Of a stretch of DNA of 47,250 nt, positions 7,664-42,182 are shown in pieces. The DNA is taken from contig DATCLE010000165.1 of NCBI GenBank assembly GCA_036564075.1, forward strand, positions 1 to 47,250, in the 5' to 3' direction. Made by a program: the position numbers and the translations under genes. This DNA comes from Dehalococcoidia bacterium (GTDB lineage Bacteria > Chloroflexota > Dehalococcoidia > DATCLE01). Under the pieces are notes generated by a model, which searched no databases, had not been told where the DNA came from, and was given only the letters and a program-made list of their open reading frames with translations. The number at the start of each line of letters is the position of its first letter. Positions within the stretch are counted from its first letter, which is position 1.

Positions 7664-7695
7664 GCGAGGCCCCGGCCCTGTGGCCGGGGCCTCGC
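7664..7695. terminator. bidirectional stem-loop terminator between convergent genes
   Basis: Perfect 14-bp stem GCGAGGCCCCGGCC-ctgt-GGCCGGGGCCTCGC between the response-regulator stop (7643) and the DUF4383 gene stop (7722). Confidence 0.6.
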
Positions 7696-7721
7696 GCGTC
7701 TGCTGCGGGCGCTGCGGGACG

Positions 7722-25982: not shown

Positions 25983-25996
25983 AGAACGGAAGTTCG
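25983..25996 (-). promoter_or_regulatory. LexA (SOS/Cheo) box at the ruvB promoter
   Basis: Minus strand reads CGAAC-TTCC-GTTCT, a perfect GAAC-N4-GTTC core, 14 nt downstream of the TATAAT. Confidence 0.6.
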
Positions 25997-26766: not shown

Positions 26767-28728
26767 TCAGGGCAGCTCCAGCCGCAGCCGCTGCCGGTAC
26801 TGCCCGCGTTCCGGCCGGTACAGCCAGGTGATGGCCGCCACCCGTCGGGTCAGGGTTGGGAGCCCTGCCGCGGGATCGCTGACCGTCACCACGTCGTACA
26901 GCTCCTGGCCCGTGTTGACGGGCACCAGGACCTCGTGGGTTCCGCCGGCGCGCTCCGCCTCCGATAGCAGCGCCGCGGCGCGGCTGCCCGCCTGGGCCGC
27001 CGTGGTGAGGGTGAGGTCGTGGACCTGACGCAGCCGCAGCCCCCCGGCGGCGACGGAGCCGTGGGCGAACGCCTCCCCCAGGACGCCCGCGCCGAAGACC
27101 TGCACGGCGTTCCACGGCTCGGCCCGCGCCCGGTGCGTTGCCTCCAGCACGGGGTGGTCCGTGCCGTACGCGTAGGACGGCGGCTCCGCCGGGCTGGGGT
27201 TGCGGAGCACCAGCGTGCCCCCGTCAAACCGTACCCGGTCCGGCACCGCGGCCAGCAGGCGGCGGAGGACCACGTCGCCCCGCTCGCCGGGGTAGACGGT
27301 GAACGCCGGCTCCAGCGCCGTGAGCTCCGGGCTGGTCCCGTCTGACAGCACAGGCAGGCCGGCCCTGGCGCTGATCGCCGTGGCGATGAGGAAGATGTTG
27401 GCCGAGCCCTGATCCCACTGGAGCTGGCGGCGGGCGGTCCAAGCGGCCAGCCGGCCCCAGCCGTCGTGGCCCTCCAGCACCACCACGCCCCGGCCGCGGC
27501 CGGCGCTCCGGGTCACCGAGTGCAGCCAGTAGGCGGGCCGGGCGCCGTACTGCGGGCCGGCGGCGGTCACGTAGCCGAACTCCACGTCCACCTGGGCGCC
27601 GGGCGCCAGGCGGTCTCCATCCGGCGTGCCGGCGTGGTAGCGGCCGTGGTCGTTCCGTAGCGTCAGGCGCAGGCTGCCACCCTCCTCCTCCGAGGCCACC
27701 AGCTCCAGCACGTCCTCCTGGGGGATGGAGAGGGCGGGCTGCTCCGGCGCCAGCCAGACCTCCCGGCCGGTCACCAGCCAGTGCCCGGCGGCGGTCCGGA
27801 CCAGGGACGGCGCGGTGACGGGGTCCGCCTGGGAGGGCGCCGGCTCCTGCCACCAAGGCTCCAGCGACCCCGAGACGTTGGGCTGGTGGCTGAGCTCCAG
27901 CCGCCGGTAGGCCCCGCTCCCGGCGTCCTGCTCCACCCAGCCGGCGCGCAGCGTGTCGTAGGCCGCCGCGCCCACCCGCTCGTACGTCACGGGGGAGCCG
28001 GGGCTGGCCGTGGCGAGGGTCACGCGCGGGCCCCACGTATCCGCGGGCACGCCGAAGCCGGCGCCGTAGGCCAGCGCCCACACGTGGGCGCCGCCGGCGT
28101 CCGCCCCCGTGACGAAGAGGACGTAGTCCCCCAGGAACGCCACGGCCAGCCCCGTGACGGCCGCCGCCGCGTGCGGCCAGGGGGAGGCGGCGCCCCACAC
28201 GCCGGAGACGCGCCGCCGGACCGCCACGGCGTTCCCGGCGGCGTACGCCAGGAGCAGGTCCCCGTTGAAGGAGGCGGCCACGGCCACGTGCTGCACCGGG
28301 ACGGCCCCGGTGAGCGCCACCGAGGCCGCGCCGAAGGTCCCGCCGCCGTCCGTGCTCTCCCGCACCACCACCGTCGTCCCGTTGCTCTCCACTGAGGCGA
28401 TGACCACGCGGTTCGGCCCCGCCGTCCCCACGCCGGGGTCCACGGCGGCGGCAGGGCCCAGGCCGGTCCAGGACGTGAAGTCGCTGCCGGCGCCGGGGCC
28501 CGGCACCCGCTGCACCTGGAGGACGCCGCCGGCCACGCGGGCGCGCACCAGCGCGCCGTCCGGCGTCACCGCGGCGGCGTGGGGGGCGCCGCCGGCGGGG
28601 TCGCGGTAGACCAGGGCGTAGGGGGTTCGGGCCACGCCCGCCAGCTGGCTGCGCACGGTGACGCGGAGGGCGGGCGTGGCGTTGGGGCTGCGCTGGGCGG
28701 CCAGCAAGTCCGGCGGGAGGGTCCGCAT
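26767..28728 (-). CDS. phage-like large structural protein (tail/tailspike candidate) with Asp-box (BNR) motif
   Basis: 653 aa with the Asp-box STDGGGTF in a beta-rich N-terminal half. Its position after the capsid and adaptor-like genes fits a tail protein. The exact family is not recognised. Confidence 0.45.
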   Translation of the reverse strand: MRTLPPDLLAAQRSPNATPALRVTVRSQLAGVARTPYALVYRDPAGGAPHAAAVTPDGALVRARVAGGVLQVQRVPGPGAGSDFTSWTGLGPAAAVDPGVGTAGPNRVVIASVESNGTTVVVRESTDGGGTFGAASVALTGAVPVQHVAVAASFNGDLLLAYAAGNAVAVRRRVSGVWGAASPWPHAAAAVTGLAVAFLGDYVLFVTGADAGGAHVWALAYGAGFGVPADTWGPRVTLATASPGSPVTYERVGAAAYDTLRAGWVEQDAGSGAYRRLELSHQPNVSGSLEPWWQEPAPSQADPVTAPSLVRTAAGHWLVTGREVWLAPEQPALSIPQEDVLELVASEEEGGSLRLTLRNDHGRYHAGTPDGDRLAPGAQVDVEFGYVTAAGPQYGARPAYWLHSVTRSAGRGRGVVVLEGHDGWGRLAAWTARRQLQWDQGSANIFLIATAISARAGLPVLSDGTSPELTALEPAFTVYPGERGDVVLRRLLAAVPDRVRFDGGTLVLRNPSPAEPPSYAYGTDHPVLEATHRARAEPWNAVQVFGAGVLGEAFAHGSVAAGGLRLRQVHDLTLTTAAQAGSRAAALLSEAERAGGTHEVLVPVNTGQELYDVVTVSDPAAGLPTLTRRVAAITWLYRPERGQYRQRLRLELP

Positions 28729-28731: not shown

Positions 28732-29343
28732 TCAGCGCTCCGGGCCGGCGGGGAGGTAGAGCCGGCGGACGCGCACGGCGTTCCGGCGGCCGTAGCGGGC
28801 CAGGCCGCGGGTGAAGGCGGCCAGCCGCTCGTTCCCCCAGGCCTGGAACTGACGCCAGACATCCGGGCCGCCGGCGTTCACCCGGTTCACGGCGTAGGCG
28901 GCCTGCTCCAGGGCGGCGTAGGCCGCCGCGCCCGCCGCCAGCAGCTCCTCCAACTGGGGCGGGACGGTGGAGCCGGCCGCGTCCAGGCTGTGGAGGCGGG
29001 CGTAGAGCACCCGCACCGGCTCCGCGGCCTGGGGCGCCGTCTCCACCAGCAGGGTCAGGGTGCTGCCCCGGCGGGAGAACGGCACGTAGGCGGGCGGGTA
29101 GCGGTCCACCGGGTACTCCACCGCGTCCACGCCGATGAGGCCGTCCAGGCCGGCCAGGGAGAGGTCCCGGCTGCCGGGCGTGGTGGTGAGCTGGGCCGCC
29201 GCCTCGTCCGGGATGGCCAGGCTCAGCTCCCGCAGCGCCCGCTGGATGTGCCGGTCCAAGGCGGCGTCCGGCCACCGCTGGGCCGTGGGGTCGGTGTCGC
29301 GCAGGTCCAGGCGGACCCGGGATCGCAGCTCCGTCAGGTTCAT
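28732..29343 (-). CDS. phage-like hypothetical protein in head-tail adaptor position
   Basis: 203 aa starting MNLTELRSRVRLDLRDTDPTAQRWPDAALDRHIQRAL, immediately downstream of the major capsid gene. The function is inferred from position only. Confidence 0.4.
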   Translation of the reverse strand: MNLTELRSRVRLDLRDTDPTAQRWPDAALDRHIQRALRELSLAIPDEAAAQLTTTPGSRDLSLAGLDGLIGVDAVEYPVDRYPPAYVPFSRRGSTLTLLVETAPQAAEPVRVLYARLHSLDAAGSTVPPQLEELLAAGAAAYAALEQAAYAVNRVNAGGPDVWRQFQAWGNERLAAFTRGLARYGRRNAVRVRRLYLPAGPER

Positions 29344-29367
29344 GGCTCCTGCCTCCTCCGGCCCAGC

Positions 29368-29407: not shown

Positions 29408-30295
29408 CTACGGCCGCACGCCGGTGAGCCGGGCCAGCTTCAGTGTGTTGAAGAGGGCCAGGGAGGCGTACCACTTGATGCGGGTACGGGTGGCGTCCTT
29501 CTCCTCCAGGCTGCCGATGCGCTCCACCTGGAGCCCGCCGGGGGAGGTGAGCCCGGCCAGCCCGCCCTCGCCGAACTGGACCGCGTAGATGGTGGAGCAG
29601 TCCGTGCTGGTGCCCACCGTCTGCGCGTCGGAGATGAAGTCGGACGTGGCCACCGGGATGCCGTCGTAGAACTGCACCATCTGGCCGAACTCGTTGCGGT
29701 CCGTCTCCAGGAAGGCGCCGGAGTTGCGGGCCAGGCTGTTGAGCTTGCGGCGGCTGCGTTTGCTCATGATGAGCAGGTCCGGCTTCCCGCCCTTCACCTG
29801 GTCCACCAGCTCGTCCAGCTTCTCCAGGGTGAGCTGGCCGCCGTTGGCGCCCAGGCTGATGGTCTGCTCCGGCGCGCACAGGCGGTCCAGGCCGTCGAAG
29901 GCCTTGGGGTCCGCCGTGCTGTCGCCGTTGATGAAGTAGTCGTCGAAGAGCCGCTGGACGGCCCGGGCCTTGAGCTGGATCACCGCCGTCTCCAGGTCCT
30001 GCACGTTGCTGCGGGTCTGGGCCAGGAAGTTGTCCACGTCGGCGTCGCCGCCCAGGATGCGGAGGGTAGCCGTCTCCTGCGTGAAGGTGGGCGTGCTCTC
30101 CGTCCAGATGTCGCCCACGGCGAAGAAGGCCGCTCCGGCCGGGGTGTTCTCCCGGTTGTAGGTGAGGCCGTTCCCCACGATCTCGATGAACGGCAGGTGC
30201 TGGAGCACCGGCGAGTCCATGATGACGGTCTCGATGACGCCCGCCAGCAGGACGTCGTTGGAGAGCTTGGATGCCTCCGCCAGGGTCAGGGCCAT
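29408..30295 (-). CDS. phage major capsid protein (HK97-fold type, no delta domain)
   Basis: 295 aa from MALTLAEASKLSNDVLLAGVIETVIMDSPVLQHLPFIEIVGNGLTYNRE, with C-terminal IKWYASLALFN. This pattern is typical of a phage major capsid family. GAGAGGAGG RBS; the track ORF start at 30364 is rejected. Confidence 0.75.
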   Translation of the reverse strand: MALTLAEASKLSNDVLLAGVIETVIMDSPVLQHLPFIEIVGNGLTYNRENTPAGAAFFAVGDIWTESTPTFTQETATLRILGGDADVDNFLAQTRSNVQDLETAVIQLKARAVQRLFDDYFINGDSTADPKAFDGLDRLCAPEQTISLGANGGQLTLEKLDELVDQVKGGKPDLLIMSKRSRRKLNSLARNSGAFLETDRNEFGQMVQFYDGIPVATSDFISDAQTVGTSTDCSTIYAVQFGEGGLAGLTSPGGLQVERIGSLEEKDATRTRIKWYASLALFNTLKLARLTGVRP

Positions 30296-30352: not shown

Positions 30353-30383
30353 AGGATAGCACATGTGTTCTATAGACCGTCAA
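30353..30383 (-). promoter_or_regulatory. promoter P2 (capsid-tail unit) with LexA/Cheo-box-like operator
   Basis: Minus strand reads TTGACG, 19-nt spacer, TATCCT. The operator TAGAAC-ACAT-GTGCTA (30357-30372) ends with its last two bases forming the TA of the -10. Confidence 0.6.
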
Positions 30384-30474
30384 CGGGCGCCTGTCACCGG
30401 CGGAATACCACACCCGGGGGTCCCGCCCCACGTCGCGGCGGGGCTACCGTGGAGGTGTCAAGGAGGTGAGCACC

Positions 30475-30870
30475 ATGCCGGCACGAACGCGCGAACGGGC
30501 CGCGGGCGGCGGCGGGACGTCCATCCCCAGCACCATCCTGCGGTCCGATAAGCACGCCCAGGAGATCTGGAAGAAGGCGCACGACAGCGCGGTGCAGACG
30601 TATGGCGAGGGCGGCCGGGCGCACCGCGTGGCCTACGCCGCCCTGAAGCACCAGTACGAGAAGAAGGGCGACCGCTGGGTCAGGAAGGAGCACCCCGGCC
30701 CGTCCGACCCGCAGGCCGCCCGTGGCCCCACCACGCGCCCCCGCTCCACCGACGAGCCGGCGGCCCCCACAGCGGGCGGCAAGGTGGCGCGGACGGAGCC
30801 GGAGGCGCGGGCCAAGGCCCGGGAGGCCCGCAAGGAGGCGGCGGCCGCCCGGCGCCGCCGCAGCCGCTGA
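30475..30870 (+). CDS. chaB: ChaB-family protein
   Basis: The ATG follows AGGAGGTGA. The ChaB pattern is present: IPSTILRSDKHAQEIWKKAHDSAVQTYGEGGRAHRVAYAALKHQYEKKGDRW. The C-terminal tail is basic and low-complexity. Confidence 0.75.
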   Translation: MPARTRERAAGGGGTSIPSTILRSDKHAQEIWKKAHDSAVQTYGEGGRAHRVAYAALKHQYEKKGDRWVRKEHPGPSDPQAARGPTTRPRSTDEPAAPTAGGKVARTEPEARAKAREARKEAAAARRRRSR

Positions 30871-30885
30871 CGCCCCGCCGTCCGG

Positions 30886-31788
30886 TCACGGGCCTCCGGT
30901 GGGGCCGCGCCGCAAGGCCAGCACGCCGGCCGCCCGCCAGCCGGCGGCGGCGGTCAGGGCCCCGGCCAGCACATCGGCCGTGTAGTGCTCGCCCAGGTAG
31001 ACCAGGGCGAAGCCCATGGCCGCCGCGTACCCGGCCCCGGCCACCCCCGCGGCCCGGCGGAGCCGCCACGCGGCGGTCGCCACCAGGACCGTCAGCGCCG
31101 TGTGCAGCGACGGCATGGCCGCCACAGGGTTGACGCCTGCCAGCTCGTGGCCCTCGCGGTACGCCGCTGCCCCTTCGCCCCCCACCAGTTCCGGCACAAT
31201 GCGGGTCACGGGGGGGATCTCGCCCGCCTGCGCCGCCAGCCACGGAGGCGCCGTGGGCACCGCGTAGCAGACCGCCAGGCCGATGTACGCGGTGATGAGG
31301 ACGGCGTACACGTACTGCCGGAAGACGGCTGCCCCGCACCGCCAGAGCAGCAGTGCCGTGAGGTGGGGCACCAGGAAGTAGGAGAGGTAGACGGCCGCCG
31401 TGACCACGTCCAGGGTGCCCGCCGTCCCCGGCGTGTGGAGGTGCTGCTGGAGCCAGACGGTGGGGATGCCGCCGGTCAGTGCCCGCTCCAGCACGATGAC
31501 GTAGCCGTACTGCCAGGGGACGCCCGTCTCGTCGCCGAAGCGGCGCAGGTACGCCCAGAGGACAAAGCCCACCAGGTAGAGGGCCGCCGCGCTGGAGGCG
31601 GCCCGCTGCCGCTCCACGAGGAGCAGCAGGCCGGCGGAGGCCGCCAGCGTCCCGCCGATGACGTAGGGCGGGACTTCGGACCTGGCCAGCAGCAGGGTCC
31701 AGAGGCAGGCCGCCAGGGCGGCCCACCGGCCGAGGTTCAACGCCGCGTGGGCCATGCCGTGGGCGGAGACCGGGGTGCGGACGTTCAC
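30886..31788 (-). CDS. PAP2-superfamily membrane phosphatase/phosphotransferase (PAP2_3-like)
   Basis: Multi-TM protein with MPSLHTA and GEHYTADVLAG phosphatase motifs. Start placed at GTG 31788, 4 nt after GGAGG; ATG 31755 is the alternative. The longer track ORF to 32061 is Arg/Pro-rich and overlaps the speH promoter. Confidence 0.7.
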   Translation of the reverse strand: MNVRTPVSAHGMAHAALNLGRWAALAACLWTLLLARSEVPPYVIGGTLAASAGLLLLVERQRAASSAAALYLVGFVLWAYLRRFGDETGVPWQYGYVIVLERALTGGIPTVWLQQHLHTPGTAGTLDVVTAAVYLSYFLVPHLTALLLWRCGAAVFRQYVYAVLITAYIGLAVCYAVPTAPPWLAAQAGEIPPVTRIVPELVGGEGAAAYREGHELAGVNPVAAMPSLHTALTVLVATAAWRLRRAAGVAGAGYAAAMGFALVYLGEHYTADVLAGALTAAAGWRAAGVLALRRGPTGGP

Positions 31789-32008
31789 GGCGCCTCCGGG
31801 CAAGGCTGGTGTGGTGGACGGTGGCAGCGCGCACGCCGCCGCTGGGATCATCGGCCGGCGGTCGCCCGGGCCTGAGGGCGGGCGCGGGGTTCCGGCGCGC
31901 GGCAGGCAGCGTGGGCCGGGCTGCCGCCCGCGGGCCAGGATCCTCCCGCGGCCTGCTCCTCTCCGGCCCCCGTTCCCCGTCACGGCCCCCGTTTTCCTGC
32001 ACAGAGCA

Positions 32009-32037
32009 TTGACCGGCGCCGCCGTGGATCCGACAAT
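32009..32037 (+). promoter_or_regulatory. promoter of speH-speE
   Basis: TTGACC, 17-nt spacer, GACAAT, 40 nt upstream of the GTG start. Confidence 0.5.
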
Positions 32038-32076
32038 GGACGGTGATTCCAGTCGGCCCATGGAGGTTACGGGGGG

Positions 32077-32427
32077 GTGAAAAGCCTAGGACGACACGTC
32101 ATCGTCGAGCTCTGGGGTTGTCAGAACATCGATTCCGAGTCCCTGGTCGAGGAGGCCTTGCGAGAGGCCGTGGACGCCTGCCAGGTCACCATGCGGGACC
32201 TGCAGGTGTTTCCGTGGGAGCCGTACAACGGGGTGAGCGGCATCGCCATCCTGGCGGAGTCCCACCTCAGCATCCACACGTGGCCGGAGTTGGGGTACGC
32301 CGCGGTGGACATCTTCACCTGCGGCGAGCAGGCGCGGCCGGAGGCCGCCGTGCCGGTCCTCCAGCGCTACTTCGTGCCGCAGCGGCTCAACGTCATGCAG
32401 GTGGACCGGGGGATCATCCTTGACTGA
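32077..32427 (+). CDS. speH: S-adenosylmethionine decarboxylase proenzyme (pyruvoyl, small bacterial/archaeal class)
   Basis: 116 aa with GRHVIVELWGC and the self-cleavage/pyruvoyl motif AESHLSIHTWPE, followed by VDIFTCG. Confidence 0.92.
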   Translation: MKSLGRHVIVELWGCQNIDSESLVEEALREAVDACQVTMRDLQVFPWEPYNGVSGIAILAESHLSIHTWPELGYAAVDIFTCGEQARPEAAVPVLQRYFVPQRLNVMQVDRGIILD

Positions 32428-33379
32428 CGGCGGCCTGTGGTTCGGGGAACCGCCACAAGCGGGGCAGCAGCCACTCCTGCTGGTCCGCGCTTCTTTGCAC
32501 CGGCGCCGCTCCCGCTACCAGACCATTGAAGTCCTGGAGACGGCCCTCTTCGGCCGTACCCTGGTCCTGGACCAGATCATCCAGACCACGGAGCGGGACG
32601 AGTTCTTCTACCATGAGATGCTGGTCCACCCCGCCATGACGGCGCACCCGGCCCCGCGCCGCGTCCTGGTCATCGGCGGGGGCGACGGCGGCGCCCTGCG
32701 CCGTGTCCTGGAGCACGGGGTGGAGCACGCCACCCTGGTGGAGATCGACCCGGAGGTGGTGGAGGTGAGCCGCCAGCACCTCCCCTCCGTCAGCGCCGGC
32801 GCCTTTGACGACCCGCGGGCGGAGCTGGTGTTCCAGGACGGCTACGCCTTCGTGGAGGAGCGGGCGGCCGCCCGCTCCGCCCCGCGGTACGACGTGGTGA
32901 TCGTGGACGCGCCGGACCCCATCGGTCCCGGCAAGCGGCTGTTCACGCCGGCGTTCTACCGCGCCCTGCACGACGTCCTTACGGAGGACGGCTTGGCGGT
33001 GGTGCAGAGCGAGTCGCCGCTGCTCATGGCCACGCAGACGGCGGCCACCTTCCTGCACCTGCGGGGCGCCTTCCCCACCGCCCGCACGTACCTGGGGGCG
33101 GTGCCCGCGTACCCCGGCGTGCTGTGGAGCTTCACCATCGGCTCCCGCCGGCACGACCCGGCGGCCGTGGAGCCGGCGGAGCTGGAGCGGCGCGTCCAGG
33201 AGCGCGGCCTCCTGACCCAGTACTACACGCCCGCCGTGCACCGGGCCGCCTTCGCGCTGCCCGCGTTCCTGGAGCGGTTCCTGGCGGACTCCGCGGCGGC
33301 GGGCGAGCCGGCGGACCGGCACCCCTTCTTCCCCGTGGCCCAGGGCATCACCGTGGCCGAGCCGCCGCCCGGCGGCTGA
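32420..33379 (+). CDS. speE: spermidine synthase (polyamine aminopropyltransferase)
   Basis: TTG start overlapping the speH stop. Motifs: QTIEVLE...GRTLVLD...ERDEFFYHEMLVHP, VLVIGGGDGGALR, and DVVIVDAPDP. Confidence 0.9.
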   Translation: MTDGGLWFGEPPQAGQQPLLLVRASLHRRRSRYQTIEVLETALFGRTLVLDQIIQTTERDEFFYHEMLVHPAMTAHPAPRRVLVIGGGDGGALRRVLEHGVEHATLVEIDPEVVEVSRQHLPSVSAGAFDDPRAELVFQDGYAFVEERAAARSAPRYDVVIVDAPDPIGPGKRLFTPAFYRALHDVLTEDGLAVVQSESPLLMATQTAATFLHLRGAFPTARTYLGAVPAYPGVLWSFTIGSRRHDPAAVEPAELERRVQERGLLTQYYTPAVHRAAFALPAFLERFLADSAAAGEPADRHPFFPVAQGITVAEPPPGG

Positions 33380-33433
33380 GCCGGGCTGGACGCTGCGGCG
33401 GGAATACGGTATCCTGAAAACAGGCGTTGACGG

Positions 33434-33510
33434 GGCGCATTCGTCTAGCGGCCCAGGACGCCGCCCTCTCAAGGCGGAGATCAGGGGTTCGAATCCCCTA
33501 TGCGCCACCA
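33434..33510 (+). tRNA. tRNA-Glu (anticodon CUC), CCA encoded
   Basis: GGCGCAT acceptor stem paired with ATGCGCC, and an anticodon stem CCGCC/GGCGG with loop CTCTCAA. The T-arm is AGGGGTTCGAATCCCCT and the 3' end is ACCA. The sequence is collinear with E. coli tRNA-Glu. Confidence 0.93.
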
Positions 33511-33516
33511 GACGCC

Positions 33517-33545
33517 CGCGGGCCGGACAGAACGTCCGGCCCGCG
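33517..33545. terminator. bidirectional stem-loop between tRNA-Glu and the coiled-coil gene
   Basis: 12-bp stem CGCGGGCCGGAC-agaac-GTCCGGCCCGCG. Confidence 0.55.
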
Positions 33546-33572
33546 CTCGTTCTCCCGCCGTCGCCCCTGCGC

Positions 33573-34076
33573 TCACCCCCGGGACGTGCGCAGCCCGTGG
33601 GCGATCTTGTCCCGCGGGCTCAGGCCCGTGAGGTCCGTCCCTGTGCGGGGCGGCGCTCCCGGCGGCACGCGGCCGCGGCGGGCCTGGGCCTCCATCTGCT
33701 CCCGCACGCGCGCCACCGTCTCCCGCGCCCGCGCCAGCGCCCCGTCGATCTCCTCGATGCTGTCGCCCGTCACTAGGTCGGCCGGTAGCTCCGGCTCCGC
33801 CCGCAGCGCCAGCTCCCGGTAGCGCGCCGCGGCCGTGGTCAGGCGGCCCTGGAGCTCCTCCACGCTGCTCCGGAGGGAGGCCGCCTCCTGCTCCCGCGTC
33901 CGCGCCGTCTCCTCCGCCGCCGCCAGTGCCTGCTCCAGCGCCGCCGTCCGCTCCTCCAGGTGGCGGGCCCGCGCCTCCCGGTCCGCCGTCAGGGCCGCCA
34001 GCCGCTCCAGCTCCGCCTGTGCCTCCGCCAGCTCCTCCTGGAGCGCCGCCAGTTCCGGATCCTGCTCGTCGCTCAT
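33573..34076 (-). CDS. acidic coiled-coil protein with basic C-terminus (phage scaffolding-protein candidate)
   Basis: 167 aa. Heptad-rich ELAALQEELAEAQAELERLAAL...ALEQALAAAEE precedes an Arg-rich tail. It lies between portal and capsid in gene order and is driven by a promoter with the same operator design as those two units. Confidence 0.5.
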   Translation of the reverse strand: MSDEQDPELAALQEELAEAQAELERLAALTADREARARHLEERTAALEQALAAAEETARTREQEAASLRSSVEELQGRLTTAAARYRELALRAEPELPADLVTGDSIEEIDGALARARETVARVREQMEAQARRGRVPPGAPPRTGTDLTGLSPRDKIAHGLRTSRG

Positions 34077-34115
34077 GGGGTCTCCTCCGTGCTCCGTCCT
34101 GGGATCGACGCCCGC

Positions 34116-34145
34116 AGGATAGAACGCATGTTCTCATCCCGGCAA
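34116..34145 (-). promoter_or_regulatory. promoter P3 (scaffold-like gene) with LexA/Cheo-box-like operator
   Basis: Minus strand reads TTGCCG, 18-nt spacer, TATCCT. The operator gAGAAC-ATGC-GTTCTA (34120-34135) has a perfect GAAC-N4-GTTC core abutting the -10. Confidence 0.6.
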
Positions 34146-34267
34146 CGGCCGGGCGTCACCTCGGGTCTCCCTACGGAATGGGCCCGCCCGTGCCGATACT
34201 GAAGGAAGGCACCCGTCTCAGGCCCGCAGGCGACCCCGCGGCCTTTCCGGCTGGTGATGGTGTTCAC

Positions 34268-35386
34268 ATGCACACAGTTCGCCGTCTGCTGGACGGTCTG
34301 AGGCCGCTGCCCGACCCTGCCCGCCAGGAGCGGGAGCGCCAGACGGCCATCCTCCGCGTGGTCCTGCGCCTCAACGATGTGGCGCTGGTGGCCTTCGTCT
34401 TCCTGGCCGTCGTCTCGCCCACCGTGCGGGACCGGCCGGAGGTGGCGCTGGGCGTGCCCCTCTACGTCCTCCTCTTCCGCGCCGTCCTGGCCCTCTACCT
34501 GAGCGACCGGATGTGGGCCTGGGGGCGCCGCGTGCGGAACCCCCTGCTCCTGACCGCCCTCTCCGGCGCGCCGCCCGTGGCCACCGCCCTCTGCTTCGGC
34601 TACGCCGTCGCCGTCACCGGCGGCGTCCACTCCCCCTTCGTGCCGGTCTTCGTGGTGGCCATGGTCTTCCCCGTCTCCCTGTTCCCGGACTGGCGGGGCC
34701 TGGCCATTGCGCTGGTGCAGCAGGCCGTCCTGGTGATGGCTTGCCTCTCCACCAAGCTCCACACACCGCTGGAAGACGCCCTCTTCCTGGTCATGCTGTT
34801 CGGCGTGCCCGCCGTGGTGGTGCCCCTGGCCCGGAACGAGCAGCGCTACCGGGTCCTCTCCGCCGTGGACGCCCTCTCCGGCGTCATGCTCCGCCGCCGC
34901 TTCGAGGAGCTGGCGGAACGACGGCTGGCGCGTCGCACCCGGCGGGCCGGCGGCGTGGGGCTGGCCATGCTGGACGTGGACCACTTCAAGGCCATCAACG
35001 ACGCCGTGGGCCACCTCCACGGCGACCGCGCCTTGCGCGCGGTGGGACAGGCGGCGCGGGAGGTGCTGAACCCGGCGGACCTCATCGGCCGGATGGGCGG
35101 CGATGAGTTCGCCATCCTCCTGTTCCGCCGCACCCGCCGGGAGGTGGAGGCGGAGCTGGAGCGCCTGCGGCGGTGCGTGGCGGAGCTGGATCTGGGACGC
35201 CAGGCGGATGGGGCGGGGCCGCAGCGCATCACCGTGAGCATCGGCCTGGCGTGGTCCACCGCCCGGCAGGTGCGGCTCCTGGAGCTGCTGTCCGCCGCGG
35301 ACGAGGCGCTCTACCGCGCCAAGGAGCGCGGCCGGAACCGGCTGGAGGTGGCGCCGCTGCCGGCGTGGGCCGGACGCGTGGCCTAG
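34268..35386 (+). CDS. membrane-anchored GGDEF diguanylate cyclase
   Basis: About 5 N-terminal TM helices, then DVDHFKAINDAVGHLHGDRAL...GRMGGDEFAILL (intact GGDEF) and LYRAKERGRN. Start at ATG 34268; the upstream part of the track ORF is antisense to the coiled-coil gene. Confidence 0.88.
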   Translation: MHTVRRLLDGLRPLPDPARQERERQTAILRVVLRLNDVALVAFVFLAVVSPTVRDRPEVALGVPLYVLLFRAVLALYLSDRMWAWGRRVRNPLLLTALSGAPPVATALCFGYAVAVTGGVHSPFVPVFVVAMVFPVSLFPDWRGLAIALVQQAVLVMACLSTKLHTPLEDALFLVMLFGVPAVVVPLARNEQRYRVLSAVDALSGVMLRRRFEELAERRLARRTRRAGGVGLAMLDVDHFKAINDAVGHLHGDRALRAVGQAAREVLNPADLIGRMGGDEFAILLFRRTRREVEAELERLRRCVAELDLGRQADGAGPQRITVSIGLAWSTARQVRLLELLSAADEALYRAKERGRNRLEVAPLPAWAGRVA

Positions 35387-36693
35387 CCCCGCTCCGCCGC
35401 CCGCTCCTCCAGCCAGCGGCGGAACTCCAGCTCCGGGTCCTCCACCCCCAGCTCATCGGCGGCGCGGCGGCGGCTGTAGACGCCCGCCTCCACCAGCGCC
35501 GTCACGTCGCCCACCTGGCGGCTCCGGTCCTGCGGCAGGACGGGACCCCACGTCACCCGGTGCCGCAGCCGGCCGAAGGACTCGCCCGTGGCGGCCTCCA
35601 GCACCCGCAGGATCAGCTCGTTGCGGCGGCGGTAGGCCGCCGTGCGGATCAGCCGCTTGCGCTCCACCTTCTTCAGCAAGGGGTCCAGCTCCGTGTTGAG
35701 GGCCACGCCGGAGAGCCCCTGCCGGTTCTCGCCGAAGGCCGTGCGCGGGCTCTCGCCCAGGTCGTGCAGGGTGCGGTAGATGAGGTCCACGTACTCCGCG
35801 TGGAGCCGCACGCCGCCGCCCTGGAGGAGGTCCAGCAGGTACGCCCGTGCCCGCTCCGGCAGCTCCCACACCGCGCCCGGCTGCACGGCGATGTCCTGGC
35901 TCTCCGTGACGTTCTCCAGCACGGCGATGGGGTTGCCGGAGAGCTCCAGGATCATGGAGAGCTGGGAGAGGGCGCGGTTCAACTCCCGCACCGGCTCCAT
36001 GATGGGCGGCAGGTCGCTCACGCCCCAGAACTGCTTGGGCTCCCGCAGGTTGGGGTAGATGACGAAGGGGATGACGCCGTAGGGGTTGGGGCGGGCCTCC
36101 ACCAGCCGGTCCGCCACCCACAGGTCAAAGGTGCGGTCCGTCCACACCTCCACCACCGTGCAGCGGCGCCGTCCCTGGGGCGGCTGCACGCCGTGGAGCA
36201 GCGCCGCCTCCTCCGCGGAGAGCTCGTACCGGCTGGCCACGCGCCAGACGCGTGTCACGTCGTCCCCCGCCCACCAGACGAAGAGCCCCTGCACGTCCGG
36301 CGCGGAGATGCGGACGCGGCGCTCCTGCGGGTCCCACGTCACCTTGAAGGCGCCGTCGCCCAGGACCGCCGCGTCCACCTCCGTATCGAAGTCCAGCTGG
36401 GCCAGGTCGTTCTCGTCCCAGATCCGCCGCAGCGTCTCCTCCGCCCGCCGGGCGCGCTCCGCCGCCTCCGGGCCCGGCTCCACCGGGTCCACGCTGAAGC
36501 CGCGCCCCAGCATCAGGTAGGAGGTGGTCTTGTCCACCAGCGCCTTCGCGTAGTTGAAGGTGAGGCGGCGTTCGTTACGGCGGCGCGGCCCCGTCCACTG
36601 CTGCCCTTGGTAGAAGGCCAGGTTCTCCGCGTAGGCCCGGAGCCGGCCCTGGTCCATGCGGTTCAACTGCTGGGGGATAGGGACCTCCCTCAC
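35383..36693 (-). CDS. phage portal protein (SPP1 gp6-like family)
   Basis: 436 aa with a GTG start 7 nt after GGGAGG. NLAFYQGQQW...RRLTFNYAKALVDKTTSYLMLGRGFSV is the characteristic N-terminal portal motif. Confidence 0.75.
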   Translation of the reverse strand: MREVPIPQQLNRMDQGRLRAYAENLAFYQGQQWTGPRRRNERRLTFNYAKALVDKTTSYLMLGRGFSVDPVEPGPEAAERARRAEETLRRIWDENDLAQLDFDTEVDAAVLGDGAFKVTWDPQERRVRISAPDVQGLFVWWAGDDVTRVWRVASRYELSAEEAALLHGVQPPQGRRRCTVVEVWTDRTFDLWVADRLVEARPNPYGVIPFVIYPNLREPKQFWGVSDLPPIMEPVRELNRALSQLSMILELSGNPIAVLENVTESQDIAVQPGAVWELPERARAYLLDLLQGGGVRLHAEYVDLIYRTLHDLGESPRTAFGENRQGLSGVALNTELDPLLKKVERKRLIRTAAYRRRNELILRVLEAATGESFGRLRHRVTWGPVLPQDRSRQVGDVTALVEAGVYSRRRAADELGVEDPELEFRRWLEERAAERG

Positions 36694-36721
36694 GCCTGCA
36701 CCTCCCGCGTCCGTCCCGCCG

Positions 36722-37042
36722 TCACGCCCGTGCCCGCCTCGCGCCGCCCTGCACCGGCGCGCCGGACGCGGCGCAGCGGCTGAGGATGCGGAACACCGTC
36801 CGGCGCGAGAGCCCGAACCGCGCCGCGATCTCGTTCACCGGCACCCGCTCCTGGAGCCGCAGCCGGACCACCTCCGCGTCCCGCGCCTCGTTCAGGATCT
36901 GGCGCAGGCCGCCCGGCACATCGTAGCGGCACTGGGGCAGCGGGCACCGCAGGCAGGACGGCGAGACCTCGCAGCCCACGTCGCGGTACTCCTGGTGTTC
37001 CGGCAGACCGTCCTCGCAGATCTCTCCACGCACCCGTCTCAT
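36722..37042 (-). CDS. Cys-rich N-terminus + helix-turn-helix protein (function unknown)
   Basis: 106 aa with C9-x14-C24-x5-C30-x2-C33-x4-C38, then VPVNEIAARFGLSRRTVFRIL (sigma-r4/Hin-like HTH). It lies between TerL and portal. Confidence 0.55.
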   Translation of the reverse strand: MRRVRGEICEDGLPEHQEYRDVGCEVSPSCLRCPLPQCRYDVPGGLRQILNEARDAEVVRLRLQERVPVNEIAARFGLSRRTVFRILSRCAASGAPVQGGARRARA

Positions 37043-37045
37043 GGC

Positions 37046-38419
37046 TCATCGCTCCCGCAACCTTCCTCTGGCGGCCCTGGGCAGCAGTCCCGCCGCGGCC
37101 TCCACCGTCAGCGCCAGGCTCATGAGGTAGTCGTCGTGCCCCTCGGCCGGGTCCACGAAGAAGCTCATGGTCCGGTTGGGACGGTAGATGGCCCGGGCCA
37201 GCTCCAGTTCCCGCCGGCACTCCGCGTACTCCGCCGACCCGTCCGCGGCGTGGAGCCGTAGCTGGCCCCCGTTCACGGCGGCCAGCAGGGCGAAGCCCAG
37301 GCGGGACTTGCTCTCCGCCGTGAACCGGTAGGGGCGGACGGCCGCCTCGCCCAGCGTCCCCGTGAGGAGGCGCGCCACCGTCTCACCCAGGCCCGTGGCG
37401 TCCACCGCCACCCGCCGGACCGCCCACGTCCGGCGCAGCAGCGCCGCAACCTGCGCCACCAGCGCGTCGTGGGGTTCGCCGCGCCAGCGGTAGAGGGCCA
37501 CCACCTCCAGCGCCGGCTCCCGCACCACCTCGCCCGCCGGCGGGAAGGCTGCGCGGGCCACCGTGAGCACTGTGGCGTCGTGGCGGGCTGCCGCGGCCCC
37601 GTCCGCCGCCTCTCCCGCCACGTCCAGCCCCGCCACGTACGTCTCCCCCGGCCGGGCGCCCGCCTGGCGCGGATGCCGCCCCAGCAGCAGCGAGAGCTGC
37701 GCCGGGGAGAGCAGCCGGCCCCCGCCGGCCAGCGGCCGGAGGCAGTACTGCGTCTGGAACAGGGGGTGGGCCTCCCCAAGCCGCTCCCGCTCCGCGGCCA
37801 CGTAGGCGGCGTAGCTGGGGTTGTGCCGCGCCACCTCCTCCCAGCCGATCTGGAAGTGACGCCGCACCCCGTCCCGGCGCTCCTGCGCCAGGTGGTGCTG
37901 GCGCATCCGCTCCAGCAGCGACGACTCTTCCCACGCCGTGCCGTAGAAGACCACGGTGGCGTTGCGGGCCGCCGCCATGGGCCGGAAGTCCCTATCGAAC
38001 TTCTCCGGGTCCACGTCCTGCGCCTCGTCCACCTCCAGCAGCGTGTCCGCCGTGTGGCCCACCACGTTGCTGGCGGGCTCCGCGGAGAGGAAGACCTGCC
38101 GCGCCCGCACCAGCCGGACCACGTGACCCGCCTCCACCCGGTACACGCGGCCGAAGCCGCACTGCTCCAGCCGGTCCCGCAGCCGCCGCAGGCTGATGCG
38201 CGCCTGGGGCGAAAGGGTGGGAGCCGCCTTCACCGCGTCGCCGCCGTGGAAGGCGTTGGCCGCCAGCAGCAGCGCCTCCAGCTGCGCCGAAAGCTCGTTC
38301 TTCCCGCCCTGCCGCGCAATCTGCACGGAGAAGCTCAACCCCCGCCGGTTCCGCACGCTGTCCAGCACCGCCCGCACCACCTGCCGTTGGTAGGGCCGCA
38401 GCGGCGGCATCCCCTCCAT
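37046..38419 (-). CDS. phage terminase large subunit
   Basis: 457 aa with LRPYQRQVVRAV, Walker A-like ARQGGKNE and Walker B LLEVDEAQD. The C-terminal nuclease-like half includes YVAGLDVAGE and HDDYLMSLAL. Confidence 0.8.
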   Translation of the reverse strand: MEGMPPLRPYQRQVVRAVLDSVRNRRGLSFSVQIARQGGKNELSAQLEALLLAANAFHGGDAVKAAPTLSPQARISLRRLRDRLEQCGFGRVYRVEAGHVVRLVRARQVFLSAEPASNVVGHTADTLLEVDEAQDVDPEKFDRDFRPMAAARNATVVFYGTAWEESSLLERMRQHHLAQERRDGVRRHFQIGWEEVARHNPSYAAYVAAERERLGEAHPLFQTQYCLRPLAGGGRLLSPAQLSLLLGRHPRQAGARPGETYVAGLDVAGEAADGAAAARHDATVLTVARAAFPPAGEVVREPALEVVALYRWRGEPHDALVAQVAALLRRTWAVRRVAVDATGLGETVARLLTGTLGEAAVRPYRFTAESKSRLGFALLAAVNGGQLRLHAADGSAEYAECRRELELARAIYRPNRTMSFFVDPAEGHDDYLMSLALTVEAAAGLLPRAARGRLRER

Positions 38420-38428
38420 GCCCGGCCC

Positions 38429-38635
38429 TCACTCCATCACCTTCAGGACCACCTGCGTCGCCACGGCGCCGGCGATGACGAAGATCAGCCCGTTCACGCG
38501 GGCCTTGATCTCCTGCACCTGCGCCTCCAGGTGGCGCAGCCGCTCCTCCGTCACCGCGTGGAACGTCTCCTCCCGGTCCCGGGCCCGCCCGGCCCGTGCT
38601 ACCTCCCGGATCGCCGATCCCAGTTCATCCGTCAT
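38429..38635 (-). CDS. small coiled-coil protein with C-terminal TM helix (XhlA/holin-accessory-like)
   Basis: 68 aa. LRHLEAQVQEIKARVNGLIFVIAGAVATQVVL has the architecture of XhlA-type proteins. Its start overlaps the upstream gene by 11 nt. Confidence 0.5.
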   Translation of the reverse strand: MTDELGSAIREVARAGRARDREETFHAVTEERLRHLEAQVQEIKARVNGLIFVIAGAVATQVVLKVME

Positions 38636-38957
38636 GGCCGTCCTCGCCGTGCAGCAGATCGCCCATCTGGCGCAGCAGCGCCGCCGCACGCTCCCCCAGC
38701 GTCTCGCCGTCCTCCTGGGAGATGCGGTACCGTGTCCGTACCGCCCTGATGAGGAGGTCCAGGCCCCGGTACATGAGGGGTAGGTCCTCCGGGTGCTCCT
38801 GGAGCGCCGCCCAGAGCTTGGCCCGCAGCACGGCGATCTCCTGGTCCAGGCCCTCCACCTCCCGGGCCGCCGCCAGCGCCTCGCGCTCCGCCTCCGTGAG
38901 GGCCCGCTCATAGAACGCCTGCGCGCTGACCGGCCGCCGCGTCCGCTTACCGGGCAT
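38625..38957 (-). CDS. hypothetical helical protein with basic N-terminus (terminase small-subunit candidate by position)
   Basis: 110 aa starting MPGKRTRRPVSAQAFYERALTEAEREAL. It lies upstream of TerL, with 11-nt overlaps at both ends. Confidence 0.45.
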   Translation of the reverse strand: MPGKRTRRPVSAQAFYERALTEAEREALAAAREVEGLDQEIAVLRAKLWAALQEHPEDLPLMYRGLDLLIRAVRTRYRISQEDGETLGERAAALLRQMGDLLHGEDGHDG

Positions 38958-39096
38958 CGCTCTCCCCCAGCACGTCCAGCAGGTCCTGCACCGCCTCCCG
39001 GGGGAGCGCCTCCGCCGCCCGGACCACGCCCAGCAGCAGGTACAGCGCCACCACGTCCCAGGCCCGCCGCTCCAGGGCACGCGCCATGGCCGTCAT
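38947..39096 (-). CDS. hypothetical 49-aa protein with one hydrophobic helix
   Basis: Hand-translated product: MTAMARALERRAWDVVALYLLLGVVRAAEALPREAVQDLLDVLGESDAR. AGGAGGG lies 5 nt before the ATG. It is below the ORF-track size cutoff. Confidence 0.4.
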   Translation of the reverse strand: MTAMARALERRAWDVVALYLLLGVVRAAEALPREAVQDLLDVLGESDAR

Positions 39097-39106
39097 CCCC
39101 GCCCTC

Positions 39107-39400
39107 CTAGCCGCGCAGCGCCCGCCGTGCGATCATGCCCGTGGCCACCAGCGTGCCCGCCGCCACCAACCACCGGCCCGCCGACGGCAGGAGCGACGCC
39201 GCGCCCGTGGCCGGCAGCGCCGCCGCCGCCGAGGCCGATTGCAGCGCGATGCCGCAGAACAGGAGCGCCAGCACGCCCGCTGCCAGCCGCCGTCCGCGCG
39301 TCCGGGCCCGGCTCCGGACGTACCGCGCGAAGTACCAGCCGTTGACCGCCGCACAGGCGCCCGTGACGCCAGCCAGCGCTGTGGTGAGGGGATCCGGCAT
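39107..39400 (-). CDS. small membrane protein (three hydrophobic segments, holin-like topology)
   Basis: 97 aa and the first gene after promoter P1. Hydrophobic stretches are separated by an RSRARTRGRR loop. Confidence 0.5.
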   Translation of the reverse strand: MPDPLTTALAGVTGACAAVNGWYFARYVRSRARTRGRRLAAGVLALLFCGIALQSASAAAALPATGAASLLPSAGRWLVAAGTLVATGMIARRALRG

Positions 39401-39449
39401 CTGCCCTGTCCGTCTCCATCCGTGTGCTCCCCGCGTTCAGGTGAGCCTG

Positions 39450-39479
39450 AGAGTAGAACAGATGTACTACACCTGTCAA
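39450..39479 (-). promoter_or_regulatory. promoter P1 (terminase-portal unit) with LexA/Cheo-box-like operator
   Basis: Minus strand reads TTGACA, 18-nt spacer, TACTCT. The operator TAGtAC-ATCT-GTTCTA (39454-39469) abuts the -10. Confidence 0.6.
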
Positions 39480-39494
39480 GCGACGGATGGCAAG

Positions 39495-40596: not shown

Positions 40597-41367
40597 GTGC
40601 AGGAGATTGCCGTGAACGGTCCCCGTCCCCTGGCCGTCCTGTTCGACCTGGACGACACCATCCTGGACGATAGCAGCTCAACCGTCTCCGCCTGGCACGT
40701 TGCCTGTGCCGGTGCCGCGGCCGAGCTGCCGGGCCTCACCGCCGCCGCGCTGTACCAGGCCATCGACCGGGTCCGGACCTGGTACTGGTCGGACCCGGAG
40801 CGGCACCGGCAGGGACGGCAGGACCTCCGCGCCGCCACCCGCGCCATCGTCCGGCAGGCCATGGCAGGCCTGGGCGTGGACGCGCCGGCCCTGGCGGACG
40901 CCGTGGCGGACCGCTACCGGGACCTGCGGGAGGAGGCCCAGCGCCTCTTCCCCCGCGCCGTGGAGACGCTGGAGGCGCTGCGGGCGGAAGGCATCCGGCT
41001 GGCCCTCCTCACCAACGGCGCGGCCGCTGCCCAGCGCACCAAGATCGAGCGGTTCGACCTGGCCCGCCACTTCGACTACATCTGCATCGAAGGCGAGTTC
41101 GGCTGCGGCAAGCCGGACCTCCAGGTCTACCGGGCCGCCCTGGCGGCCCTGGGCTGCCCCGCGGAGCGGACCTGGATGGTGGGCGATAACCTGGAGTGGG
41201 ACGTGCTGGCGCCGCAGCGGCTGGGTGTGGCCGGCATCTGGCTGGACCGGGCGGGGGCCGGCCTCCCGGCGGGCCTTGCGGTCCGGCCCTCCCGGATCAT
41301 CCGTGACCTGCCGGAACTGCTTCCGGCGTCGTTCTCCCCTCATCCTCCCCCTTCCCCCGGCCGATAA
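40597..41367 (+). CDS. HAD-superfamily hydrolase (subfamily IA-like)
   Basis: Motif I LFDLDDTILD, motif II LLTNG, then GKPD and VGDNLEWDV. The start is GTG 40597 or GTG 40612. The 5' part of the 626-aa track ORF is antisense to the methyltransferase. Confidence 0.8.
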   Translation: MQEIAVNGPRPLAVLFDLDDTILDDSSSTVSAWHVACAGAAAELPGLTAAALYQAIDRVRTWYWSDPERHRQGRQDLRAATRAIVRQAMAGLGVDAPALADAVADRYRDLREEAQRLFPRAVETLEALRAEGIRLALLTNGAAAAQRTKIERFDLARHFDYICIEGEFGCGKPDLQVYRAALAALGCPAERTWMVGDNLEWDVLAPQRLGVAGIWLDRAGAGLPAGLAVRPSRIIRDLPELLPASFSPHPPPSPGR

Positions 41368-41432
41368 TCGAGACAGGGGATCTGTGCGCGGGAACCGGGC
41401 GCCGGAGCCCCGGAACGGGGGGAGGTGGGCCC

Positions 41433-42119
41433 ATGGCCCTGTGGTCCGCAGCGCGGGAGCCGGAAGGCGCGCAGCTCAGGCTTGTCCCAGGCCTGCGCGT
41501 CCTGCTGCAAACGGTAGAGGGGGACGCGCTCCGGGAGCACGCCGCCGCGGTACTGGCGGTGGAGGACGGCGCCTTCCTGGTGCCCGCGCCGGCGAAGGGC
41601 GGCCGCCCCTGGCGGAGCCCCGGCCGGCACGTGGCGGTCCACGCCTCCCAGGACGGCCGGGACTACGTCTTCGATACGGAGGTCCTGGGCCTGGCGGACG
41701 GCGCGCCGCCGCGCCTGCGCCTGGCGGTCCCCGCGCGCGTCTTCCCCTTTGAGCGGCGGGAGTACTACCGGCTGCCCAAGGTGCTGCGGCCGGCCGCCGC
41801 CGGCGTCCTGGACGCCGCGGGCAACACGGCCCGGGTCCTGGACCCCGTGGTAGTGGACATCGGCGGCGGCGGCCTCCGGTTCCTGGAGGACCGGCCGGTG
41901 CCCGCCGGCAGCACCGTCTGGCTGGAGCTGCCCCTCACCGGCCCCGCGGACGCCGTCCACGTGCAGGCGGAGGTGGTGGCGGCCCGCGGGCCGGAGCCCC
42001 ACGAACCCCGCCACAGCATGAGCGCCCGCTTCGTGGGGCTCTCCCCGGCGGACCGGCAGCGGATCCTGCGCTTCGTCTTCCAGCAGCAGGTAGAGCTACG
42101 GCGGAGCGCGTTGGGGTGA
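41433..42119 (+). CDS. PilZ-domain c-di-GMP-binding protein (YcgR-like two-domain architecture)
   Basis: 228 aa with ERREYYRL (RxxxR) and DIGGGGLRF (D/NxSxxG-type) motifs in the C-terminal half. Confidence 0.75.
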   Translation: MALWSAAREPEGAQLRLVPGLRVLLQTVEGDALREHAAAVLAVEDGAFLVPAPAKGGRPWRSPGRHVAVHASQDGRDYVFDTEVLGLADGAPPRLRLAVPARVFPFERREYYRLPKVLRPAAAGVLDAAGNTARVLDPVVVDIGGGGLRFLEDRPVPAGSTVWLELPLTGPADAVHVQAEVVAARGPEPHEPRHSMSARFVGLSPADRQRILRFVFQQQVELRRSALG

Positions 42120-42182
42120 CGGTGGCAGCGGGGCGTCCGCGGCCGTGAGGCGCCGGGGGCTGCGCGTCCCAGGGGGACGGAG

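Follow-up and report, generated by a model that had tools for sequence, protein, structure and literature searches.

In colicin operons LexA boxes overlap the −10 element, and tailocins are induced via RecA. In the late promoter P3 of the Bacillus thuringiensis tectivirus GIL01, boxes for host LexA are combined with a phage activator that overlaps the −35 (Fornelos et al. 2018, PMC6182141). In the gene transfer agent (GTA) of Rhodobacter capsulatus, RcGTA, the activator GafA, which has sigma-factor-like DNA-binding regions, binds near the −10 and −35, and production of RcGTA is influenced by LexA and cyclic di-GMP (c-di-GMP) (PMC9638019). We analysed a 47,250-nt stretch of a Dehalococcoidia bacterium (Chloroflexota; contig DATCLE010000165.1, assembly GCA_036564075.1), here called the window, which carries a split phage-like gene cluster with three promoters, P1, P2 and P3. 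An earlier reading of this DNA (the original prediction) had proposed that the three share one design, a LexA-like palindrome abutting the −10. We see about an even chance that P1–P3 are copies of an ancient, phage-derived, three-part promoter that drives every operon of the cluster and whose palindrome is held by host LexA.

Layout of the three promoters

39450 to 39493, minus strand: P1, promoter of the operon u97, u155, large terminase, Cys4-helix-turn-helix (HTH) protein and portal; upstream hexamer TTGCCA (39493-39488), −35 TTGACA (39479-39474), 18-nt spacer, −10 TACTCT (39455-39450)
39469-39454, minus strand: P1 palindrome, TAGTACATCTGTTCTA
30353 to 30397, minus strand: P2, promoter of the operon capsid, adaptor, u654 and u232; upstream hexamer GTGACA (30397-30392), −35 TTGACG (30383-30378), 19-nt spacer, −10 TATCCT (30358-30353)
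30372-30357, minus strand: P2 palindrome, TAGAACACATGTGCTA
34116 to 34159, minus strand: P3, promoter of the scaffold (coiled-coil) gene; upstream hexamer GTGACG (34159-34154), −35 TTGCCG (34145-34140), 18-nt spacer, −10 TATCCT (34121-34116)
34135-34120, minus strand: P3 palindrome, GAGAACATGCGTTCTA, with a perfect GAAC-N4-GTTC core

The minus-strand sequences quoted for P1, P2 and P3 in the original prediction were found exactly, at 39479-39450, 30383-30353 and 34145-34116. As it described, the palindrome lies in the spacer with identical phasing, its terminal TA doubling as the initial TA of the −10 in all three promoters (3/3). Each palindrome spans 16 bp and is one mismatch away from TAGAACNNNNGTTCTA, and the cores of P1 and P2 each have one mismatch to GAAC-N4-GTTC. 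That the three sites share one conserved design holds; its description as two parts does not, as there is a third element, a GTGNCA-type hexamer separated from the −35 by exactly 8 nt in P1, P2 and P3. The layout is of the sigma-70 type, and the promoters, with predicted transcription starts, lie 33-50 nt 5′ of start codons with GGAGG-like sites. In P2 a TGC directly precedes the −10, which is the extended −10 form.

P1, P2 and P3 are the sole sites within one mismatch of TAGAACNNNNGTTCTA in the 47-kb window, and no such site occurred in 100 dinucleotide-preserving shuffles. Their weight-matrix scores are 22.7-26.3, with a maximum of 16.5 over 100 simulated windows, a comparison that is slightly circular because 3 of the 22 training sites are P1–P3 themselves. 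The 12-bp core GAACNNNNGTTC, allowing at most one mismatch, has 17 matches in the window (8.2 ± 2.7 expected). The original prediction had counted only three such matches beyond P1–P3 and the box at ruvB, all inside coding sequences (CDSs); there are 13, one of which (33479-33490) falls between convergent genes. The palindromes fold into weak hairpins (−2.8 to −6.5 kcal/mol, z-scores −0.9 to −2.5), so we rejected a structural hairpin and consider a protein site more likely.

Conservation of the design in Dehalococcoidia

Related loci, numbered here with the prefix L, came from a scan of species-representative genomes, which gave 40 loci, all in metagenome-assembled genomes (MAGs) of Chloroflexota or Dehalococcoidia, and from a metagenome scan with a terminase alignment, which gave 80 further loci. 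All loci with a taxon name belong to Chloroflexota or Dehalococcoidia. The design precedes the terminase operon and the scaffold gene, and also the capsid gene or the adaptor operon where these stand separate. The terminase operon follows a P1 orthologue in L002, L009, L039, L053 and numerous metagenome loci; orthologues of P3 are found at the scaffold gene in L002-L005, L009, L029, L039, L041, L050 and L053, and a P2-like promoter at capsid genes separated from the scaffold gene in L006, L007, L026, L037 and L043-L047.

The genome and viral loci yielded 37 non-redundant sites, 32 of which have the 8-nt gap between hexamer and −35. An alignment of 18 promoters reads GTG(A/C)CA(C/T), 8 nt, TTGACg, 3-4 nt, palindrome and −10 TAYYCT, with G, A, T and C invariant in the palindrome arms. 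All data together gave 100 non-redundant sites across 70 loci, with the palindrome consensus TAGAACATATGTTCTA. Base frequencies over the 100 sites are T58 A89 G100 A87 A100 C96 in the left half, A79 T56 A65 T84 (ATAT) in the centre and G76 T100 T64/G27 C100 T97 A94 in the right half; G3, A5, T12 and C14 are present in 100 % of sites. The −35 and −10 consensus over related sites is TTGACr, 17-18 nt, TAYYCT; the spacer is 17 nt long in 49 sites and 18 nt in 44, and the −10 fits TAnnnT in 87/100. A GACA-type element matching in at least 3 of 4 bases accompanies 89/100 sites, at a gap of exactly 8 nt in 77 of the 89. Host GC content across the sites ranges from 46 to 72 %, and at one low-GC locus a neighbouring protein is 95 % identical to a protein labelled Dehalococcoidia. 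Terminase identity among the loci goes down to 50 %, a divergence at which intergenic DNA would be randomised, which argues that the three elements are under selection. P1–P3 are one conserved three-part regulatory design.

The sites are not all alike. The region about 100 nt 5′ of the scaffold gene has no palindrome in clade B (L011, L012, L016-L022, L025, L027, L028, L031, L036), and the left arm is degenerate in L013, L014, L023, L024 and L038. L050, L082, L094 and L096 have additional tandem boxes that do not keep to the fixed phasing, at distances of 23 bp in L082 and L094 and of 43 bp in L096. The HR25-like locus L050 has three boxes within 110 bp 5′ of the terminase gene, two of which serve a divergent gene for a 54-aa zinc-ribbon protein (CxxC...CxxC); within 2448-2760 the promoter of this gene reads TTGACA, N4, GAGAATGTTTGTTCTA, TTTT, with the second box at the predicted start site. 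We considered whether a GTGC right arm, giving a TGn extended −10, offsets a weak −35 and rejected this, as −35 quality is equal at GTTC and GTGC sites.

In two low-GC Dehalococcoidia loci (L128, L261) a two-gene u155-TerL operon stands alone between genes for a PHO4 phosphate transporter and a CetZ-like tubulin (13307-15147 in L261); its palindrome promoter scores 25.5 and is the sole strong site in 21 kb. A scan of IMG/VR with the extended motif returned eight contigs, which differed in GC and all lacked lexA, and one with the clade B promoter returned 119 chance matches, none with cluster genes. Motif matches outside the cluster (L007, L029, L013, L040, L030, L079) were discarded, the downstream open reading frames (ORFs) being without repair domains.

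The spacer lengths bear on whether a MerR-type dimeric activator could sit on a dyad in an over-long spacer and twist the −35 and −10 into register. The window spacers of 18, 18 and 19 nt with a dyad inside would suit such an activator, but across relatives the spacer is 17-18 nt in 93/100 sites rather than 19-20, the dyad is off-centre and overlaps the −10, and the nearby MerR genes (window 2913-3317, L030, L032) are HspR-like and unlinked to the cluster. We find a MerR-type activator scarcely credible. The MerR gene beside a weak motif match in L030 and L032 was set aside as a homologue of the HspR-like gene at window 2913-3317, unrelated to the cluster.

The arm frequencies bear on a second alternative, that there is no separate binder and an unusual promoter, its dyad incidental, is read by RNA polymerase itself, possibly aided by the sigma-like HTH protein. 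A simple sigma-70 consensus scan does not call P1–P3, the hexamers being too weak, and in the five loci with a degenerate left arm the right arm, which overlaps the −10, is the better kept. This reading is nevertheless very improbable: conservation of the left arm (G100, A87, A100, C96) equals that of the right, which it mirrors, some boxes lie away from any −10 (L050 at 2637, L082, L094), and clade B promoters do without GTTC before the −10.

A palindrome of the LexA-box type

The lexA-promoter consensus in Firmicutes is TACGAACATATGTTCGTA (PMC2248561), and the boxes of Nostoc are AGTACTAATGTTCT at lexA, AGTATATCTGTTCT at recA and AGTACTATTGTTCT at uvrA (PMC3091678). The P1 box in the window reads AGTACATCTGTTCT, one base from the Nostoc recA box, and the ATAT centre of the palindrome is compatible with RNRY. 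A 2002 study by Fernandez de Henestrosa and co-workers is reported to have found that LexA of Dehalococcoides ethenogenes, a species belonging to this class, binds GAAC-N4-GTTC. The sites here have a GAAC-N4-GTTC dyad, or its GTAC variant, around an A/T-rich centre, and judged by its sequence the consensus TAGAACATATGTTCTA is within the Gram-positive and cyanobacterial LexA-box family, which agrees with the LexA type assigned in the original prediction (PMC2248561, PMC3091678).

The cluster has no repressor gene linked to it, not even in the mobile relative L125, and a host-encoded repressor is therefore the simplest reading. One alternative is a host winged-helix repressor other than LexA, of the ArsR/SmtB type or a Dehalococcoidia factor, responding to a signal other than DNA damage. 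ArsR/SmtB operators read TGAACA-N2-TGTTCA and have the core GAAC-A-N2-T-GTTC in common with the palindrome; no SOS gene was seen with the motif, and in the window c-di-GMP genes (one GGDEF, two PilZ) are interspersed with those of the cluster. We hold such a factor to be rather improbable, since the base before GAAC is A in 89/100 sites, as in LexA boxes (AGAAC, AGTAC), and not the T of the SmtB type, and no gene for such a regulator is linked to the cluster in any locus.

A Cys4-HTH protein encoded with the design

36722 to 37042, minus strand: Cys4 zinc-ribbon and sigma-70 region-4-like HTH protein, 106 aa

The P1 operon encodes a small protein with matches to Pfam HTH_23 (3.7e-8) and Sigma70_r4 (5.9e-6), PHROG 836 (late transcriptional activator, 3.9e-6) and TIGR02937 (an ECF-sigma superfamily model, 6e-6). 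Its four cysteines and the recognition helix of its C-terminal HTH are conserved in 50 homologues, the helix, (V/I)S(R/K)RT(V/I)xR, about as well as the palindrome. A single-sequence structure model has a mean predicted local distance difference test score (pLDDT) of 60, too low for a fold search. We counted co-occurrence over loci with enough flanking DNA. Where the HTH gene follows the gene for TerL, the large terminase subunit, a palindrome promoter lies within 1.6 kb 5′ in 24/27 loci, and two of the three others have one further 5′; where TerL is followed immediately by the portal gene, with the HTH gene missing, such a promoter is present in 0/5 loci (hypergeometric p ~3e-4, kinship of loci ignored). 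The HTH-portal operons of L124 and L135 each have a separate palindrome promoter.

The same co-occurrence and the L124 and L135 operons favour a further alternative, in which the palindrome would be a dimeric operator of the Cys4-HTH protein, repressing or timing all operons with LexA uninvolved and the hexamer an UP-like element or another factor's site. The matching conservation of helix and palindrome and the association of all strong sites with the cluster also fit. Single HTH domains of the sigma-region-4 type typically read one hexamer (TTGACA, GTGACA) and not a 16-bp dyad. A repressor encoded at the far end of its operon would moreover require continuous terminase and primase expression for silencing (as in L125), two binding activities would be expected for two conserved cis elements, and the palindrome matches a known host operator family. 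We regard this alternative, the chief rival, as unlikely. Because a single region-4-type HTH suits a −35-like hexamer (GTGACA) better than a 16-bp dyad, we assign the protein to the upstream element, and it is likely an activator acting at −50 to −45.

L125 has a related arrangement: at 1252-7847 a tyrosine integrase gene diverges from a single palindrome promoter driving primase (DUF3854/Toprim, 809 aa), u155-like, TerL and HTH genes. It is without a capsid, portal or repressor gene, is flanked by Abi_alpha and HD-CE genes, and may represent a satellite-like element that works by the same switch.

A proposed two-input switch

We propose that host LexA and the Cys4-HTH protein would act on the same promoter. 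Its core is a weak sigma-70-type promoter (TTGACg, a 17-18 nt spacer, 18-19 in the window, and TAYYCT), its second part the 16-bp palindrome that fills the 3′ spacer and shares its last two bases with the start of the −10, and its third part the GTGNCA or GACAAAA element exactly 8 nt 5′ of the −35. A host LexA dimer on the palindrome, covering spacer and −10, would block RNA polymerase at all operons together. Upon DNA damage, RecA-stimulated self-cleavage of LexA would free the promoters and open P1. Expression of the P1 operon would supply the Cys4-HTH protein, which would in turn occupy the −50 to −45 element and strengthen the weak cores, a positive feedback.

25984 to 25995, no strand assigned: ruvB core, a perfect GAAC-N4-GTTC 15 nt 3′ of the ruvB TATAAT −10
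24887-25927, minus strand: ruvB, next to the cluster, without ruvA or ruvC; own promoter TGGACC, 17 nt, TATAAT

LexA as the binder of the palindrome is plausible, and we judge its prospects evenly balanced. Several observations weigh against it. The window and ~1.4 Mb of related loci contain no lexA, recA, uvrA or uvrB gene, and the strong sites in this related DNA all lie at cluster operons or unassigned small neighbours, with no recognised repair gene among them. At 24/100 sites the right arm reads GTGC and at 16/100 ATTC, departures from the LexA core at bases that matter in Bacillus and Mycobacterium. Clade B retains the rest of the scaffold promoter (GTGAYC, 8 nt, TTGGAGATCGC, −10 TAcnCT), and the co-occurrence of the HTH gene fits an HTH protein binding the palindrome equally well. 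The box at ruvB has the perfect core that the original prediction reported, but its full 16-bp matrix score of 7.3 is at chance level, and it is absent or different, thus not conserved, in L010, L053, L039 and L005.

The ruvB box was accordingly rejected as a strong SOS anchor. The adjacency of ruvB to the cluster recurs in L005, L010, L037, L039 and L053, and at L053 15700-15760 a different perfect dyad, TAGCTTcacacAAGCTA, lies within the 18-nt spacer in the promoter of a small-gene-plus-ruvB operon and ends in the TA of the −10. The searches for SOS genes gave the following: tblastn of Escherichia coli and Bacillus subtilis LexA, and of RecA, had no match in any locus; regular-expression screens for repair-protein motifs returned ABC transporters, one dnaE and one recQ only; and a GC-shifted B. 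subtilis LexA query matched Firmicutes only, in agreement with cluster names.

An apparently domesticated phage-particle gene set

The conserved gene set comprises scaffold, HK97-type capsid, portal, large terminase, adaptor and two proteins without assigned function. A homologue search with the capsid scored 8,000 candidates, of which 6,238 passed E <= 0.001; the best 120 of the 6,238 are 75-99 % identical and 294-296 aa long, and identity to capsids of isolated phages is at most 42 %. The cluster genes recur in pieces, with scaffold-capsid alone in many genomes, and host genes are interleaved with them at differing places per genome. L053 and the window have the same host flanks, HIT and HD genes on one side and ruvB with two ABC transporters on the other. 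In the cluster of the window and in L050 and L053, domain scans detected no domains of integrases, replication proteins or repressors, leaving head and packaging genes without genes for integration, replication or lysogeny. This conservation, the shared flanking position, the dispersal among host genes and the lack of integrase, replication and repressor genes make the cluster look like a vertically inherited, domesticated, GTA-like phage-particle gene set, and they bear out the domesticated element of the original prediction.

The window was mapped by framing on third-codon-position GC content (GC3) and by Pfam, PHROG and NCBIfam scans, giving the following genes in addition to those above.

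39107 to 39400, minus strand: u97, small predicted membrane protein (ORF and GC3 analysis), first gene after P1; no significant match in family scans
38625 to 39092, minus strand: u155, conserved small protein 5′ of the terminase gene; start uncertain, probably the ATG at 38957; no match in family scans
37046 to 38419, minus strand: large terminase subunit (Pfam Terminase_6C 3.7e-8; PHROG terminase large subunit families)
35383 to 36834, minus strand: portal, SPP1 Gp6-like (Pfam SPP1_portal 1.9e-20); start uncertain
about 34265-35386, plus strand: GGDEF diguanylate cyclase, diverging from P3, between the P1 and P3 units
33573 to 34076, minus strand: scaffold-like coiled-coil protein, 167 aa (coiled-coil matches only)
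between the P3 and P2 units: spermidine synthase and S-adenosylmethionine (AdoMet) decarboxylase (plus strand), then a PAP2 gene
29408 to 30295, minus strand: HK97-fold major capsid protein, 295 aa (PHROG 212 2.8e-77; NF045672 2.7e-63)
28732 to 29346, minus strand: head-tail adaptor, SU10 adaptor-like (Pfam SU10_adaptor 5.3e-11)
26767 to 28728, minus strand: u654, conserved 650-aa protein after the adaptor gene; no family or PDB match
26068 to 26739, minus strand: u232, last gene of the P2 operon

The coiled-coil gene, which the original prediction had tied to the capsid and terminase units through its promoter, does belong with them. The C-terminus of its product (..LSPRDKIAHGL..) resembles the ..EQKIRYGL.. 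end of the gene directly 5′ of the capsid gene in most relatives, and it is on this match the scaffold gene, which usually stands directly 5′ of the capsid gene and is here separated from it by host genes. In the scaffold-capsid spacer of L002, L017-L019, L021, L025, L027, L028 and L036, tandem heptamers, (ACCAGTG/A)n, (GGTTCTA)n or (CACCAAT)n, lie directly 5′ of the capsid ribosome-binding site.

The u155 gene is kept 5′ of TerL in many loci and could encode a small terminase subunit. The u654 protein is found beside the adaptor gene in more than 20 loci at 34-45 % identity and may be a tail or nozzle component. Conservation of u232 is confined to its ~70 N-terminal residues, which form a separate 70-aa gene in other genomes; there the 70-aa u232-like gene is followed by a short variable gene (L050 13912-14353; L053 14186-14572), and this pattern of a conserved anchor with a variable distal part resembles receptor-binding proteins.

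The GGDEF gene (34265-35386, plus strand) had been overlooked in the original prediction. Two genes with PilZ domains follow just past the cluster at 41307-42872 (plus strand), and the adjacency of GGDEF and PilZ genes to the cluster is not conserved in other loci. A heat-shock block at 664-5773 encodes DnaJ, an HtrA-like protease, an HspR-like MerR regulator (2913-3317) and ClpB.

A search of the literature available to us found no description of a Chloroflexota GTA or GTA-like cluster, and the element is apparently undescribed and widespread in Dehalococcoidia. It is possible, at rather less than an even chance, that Dehalococcoidia have an undescribed, vertically inherited, dispersed particle system (GTA-like, a weapon or a vehicle), all operons of which are wired to the SOS response via LexA boxes and a self-encoded zinc-ribbon, sigma-region-4-like activator, and that mobile, integrase-bearing relatives share this switch without a repressor of their own. 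If LexA holds P1–P3, a domesticated particle would be set directly under the SOS repressor at every operon, and an operator plus an upstream site for a tiny sigma-region-4-like protein would form a simple two-input switch. The 100-site matrix could locate scattered parts of the system in fragmentary MAGs and could predict the SOS regulon of a mostly uncultured class, and the same design in the integrase-bearing relative L125 would let the path of domestication be traced.

Comparison with known systems

Integrase-bearing phage satellites and small integrated elements are one point of comparison. The gene set of L125 resembles a satellite or minimal prophage, whereas the window cluster has no integrase or replication genes and lies at the same host flanks as in L053. 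SOS-controlled bacteriocins are alike in placing a costly, probably lethal export product under a damage-sensitive repressor that overlaps the core promoter. Bacteriocin promoters differ in serving single operons on plasmids or one cluster, without an activator element and without capsid or terminase genes.

The palindrome resembles the Cheo box CGAACRNRYGTTYC and the cyanobacterial LexA box RGTACNNNDGTWCB in its 4-4-4 dyad, the A before the left arm, the A/T-rich centre and the tolerance of GAAC/GTAC variation. It differs from them in its outer flank, which is TA...TA rather than C...G, in a right arm of GTGC or ATTC in 40 % of sites, and in the fixed phasing with the −10.

RcGTA is likewise a set of domesticated phage-particle genes over several loci with a dedicated activator, for which the Cys4-HTH protein is the candidate here. 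LexA acts on RcGTA indirectly, via cckA, and the structural-gene promoters have no SOS box. The host of RcGTA is an alphaproteobacterium, and GafA shows no sequence relationship to the Cys4-HTH protein, which is far smaller.

GIL01 has three promoters on one linear genome and is a replicating temperate phage, whereas the genes here are scattered in a chromosome. Repression in GIL01 requires the co-repressor gp7, and its activator gp6 is a truncated LexA homologue; the candidate activator here is a Cys4 and sigma-region-4-like protein, and no homologue of gp7 or gp6 was detected. The likenesses are LexA boxes, here candidates, inside the promoter of virion genes (virion and lysis genes in GIL01), the lack of a dedicated phage repressor, and a small phage-encoded DNA-binding activator, here a candidate, at or near the −35, on which late expression depends in GIL01. 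As the original prediction held, it is unusual for LexA to control late genes directly, but the GIL01 late promoter P3 is a precedent (PMC6182141). By analogy, the design of P1–P3 would be a form of SOS-type operator control of phage-derived particles, with this GIL01 promoter as its closest precedent.

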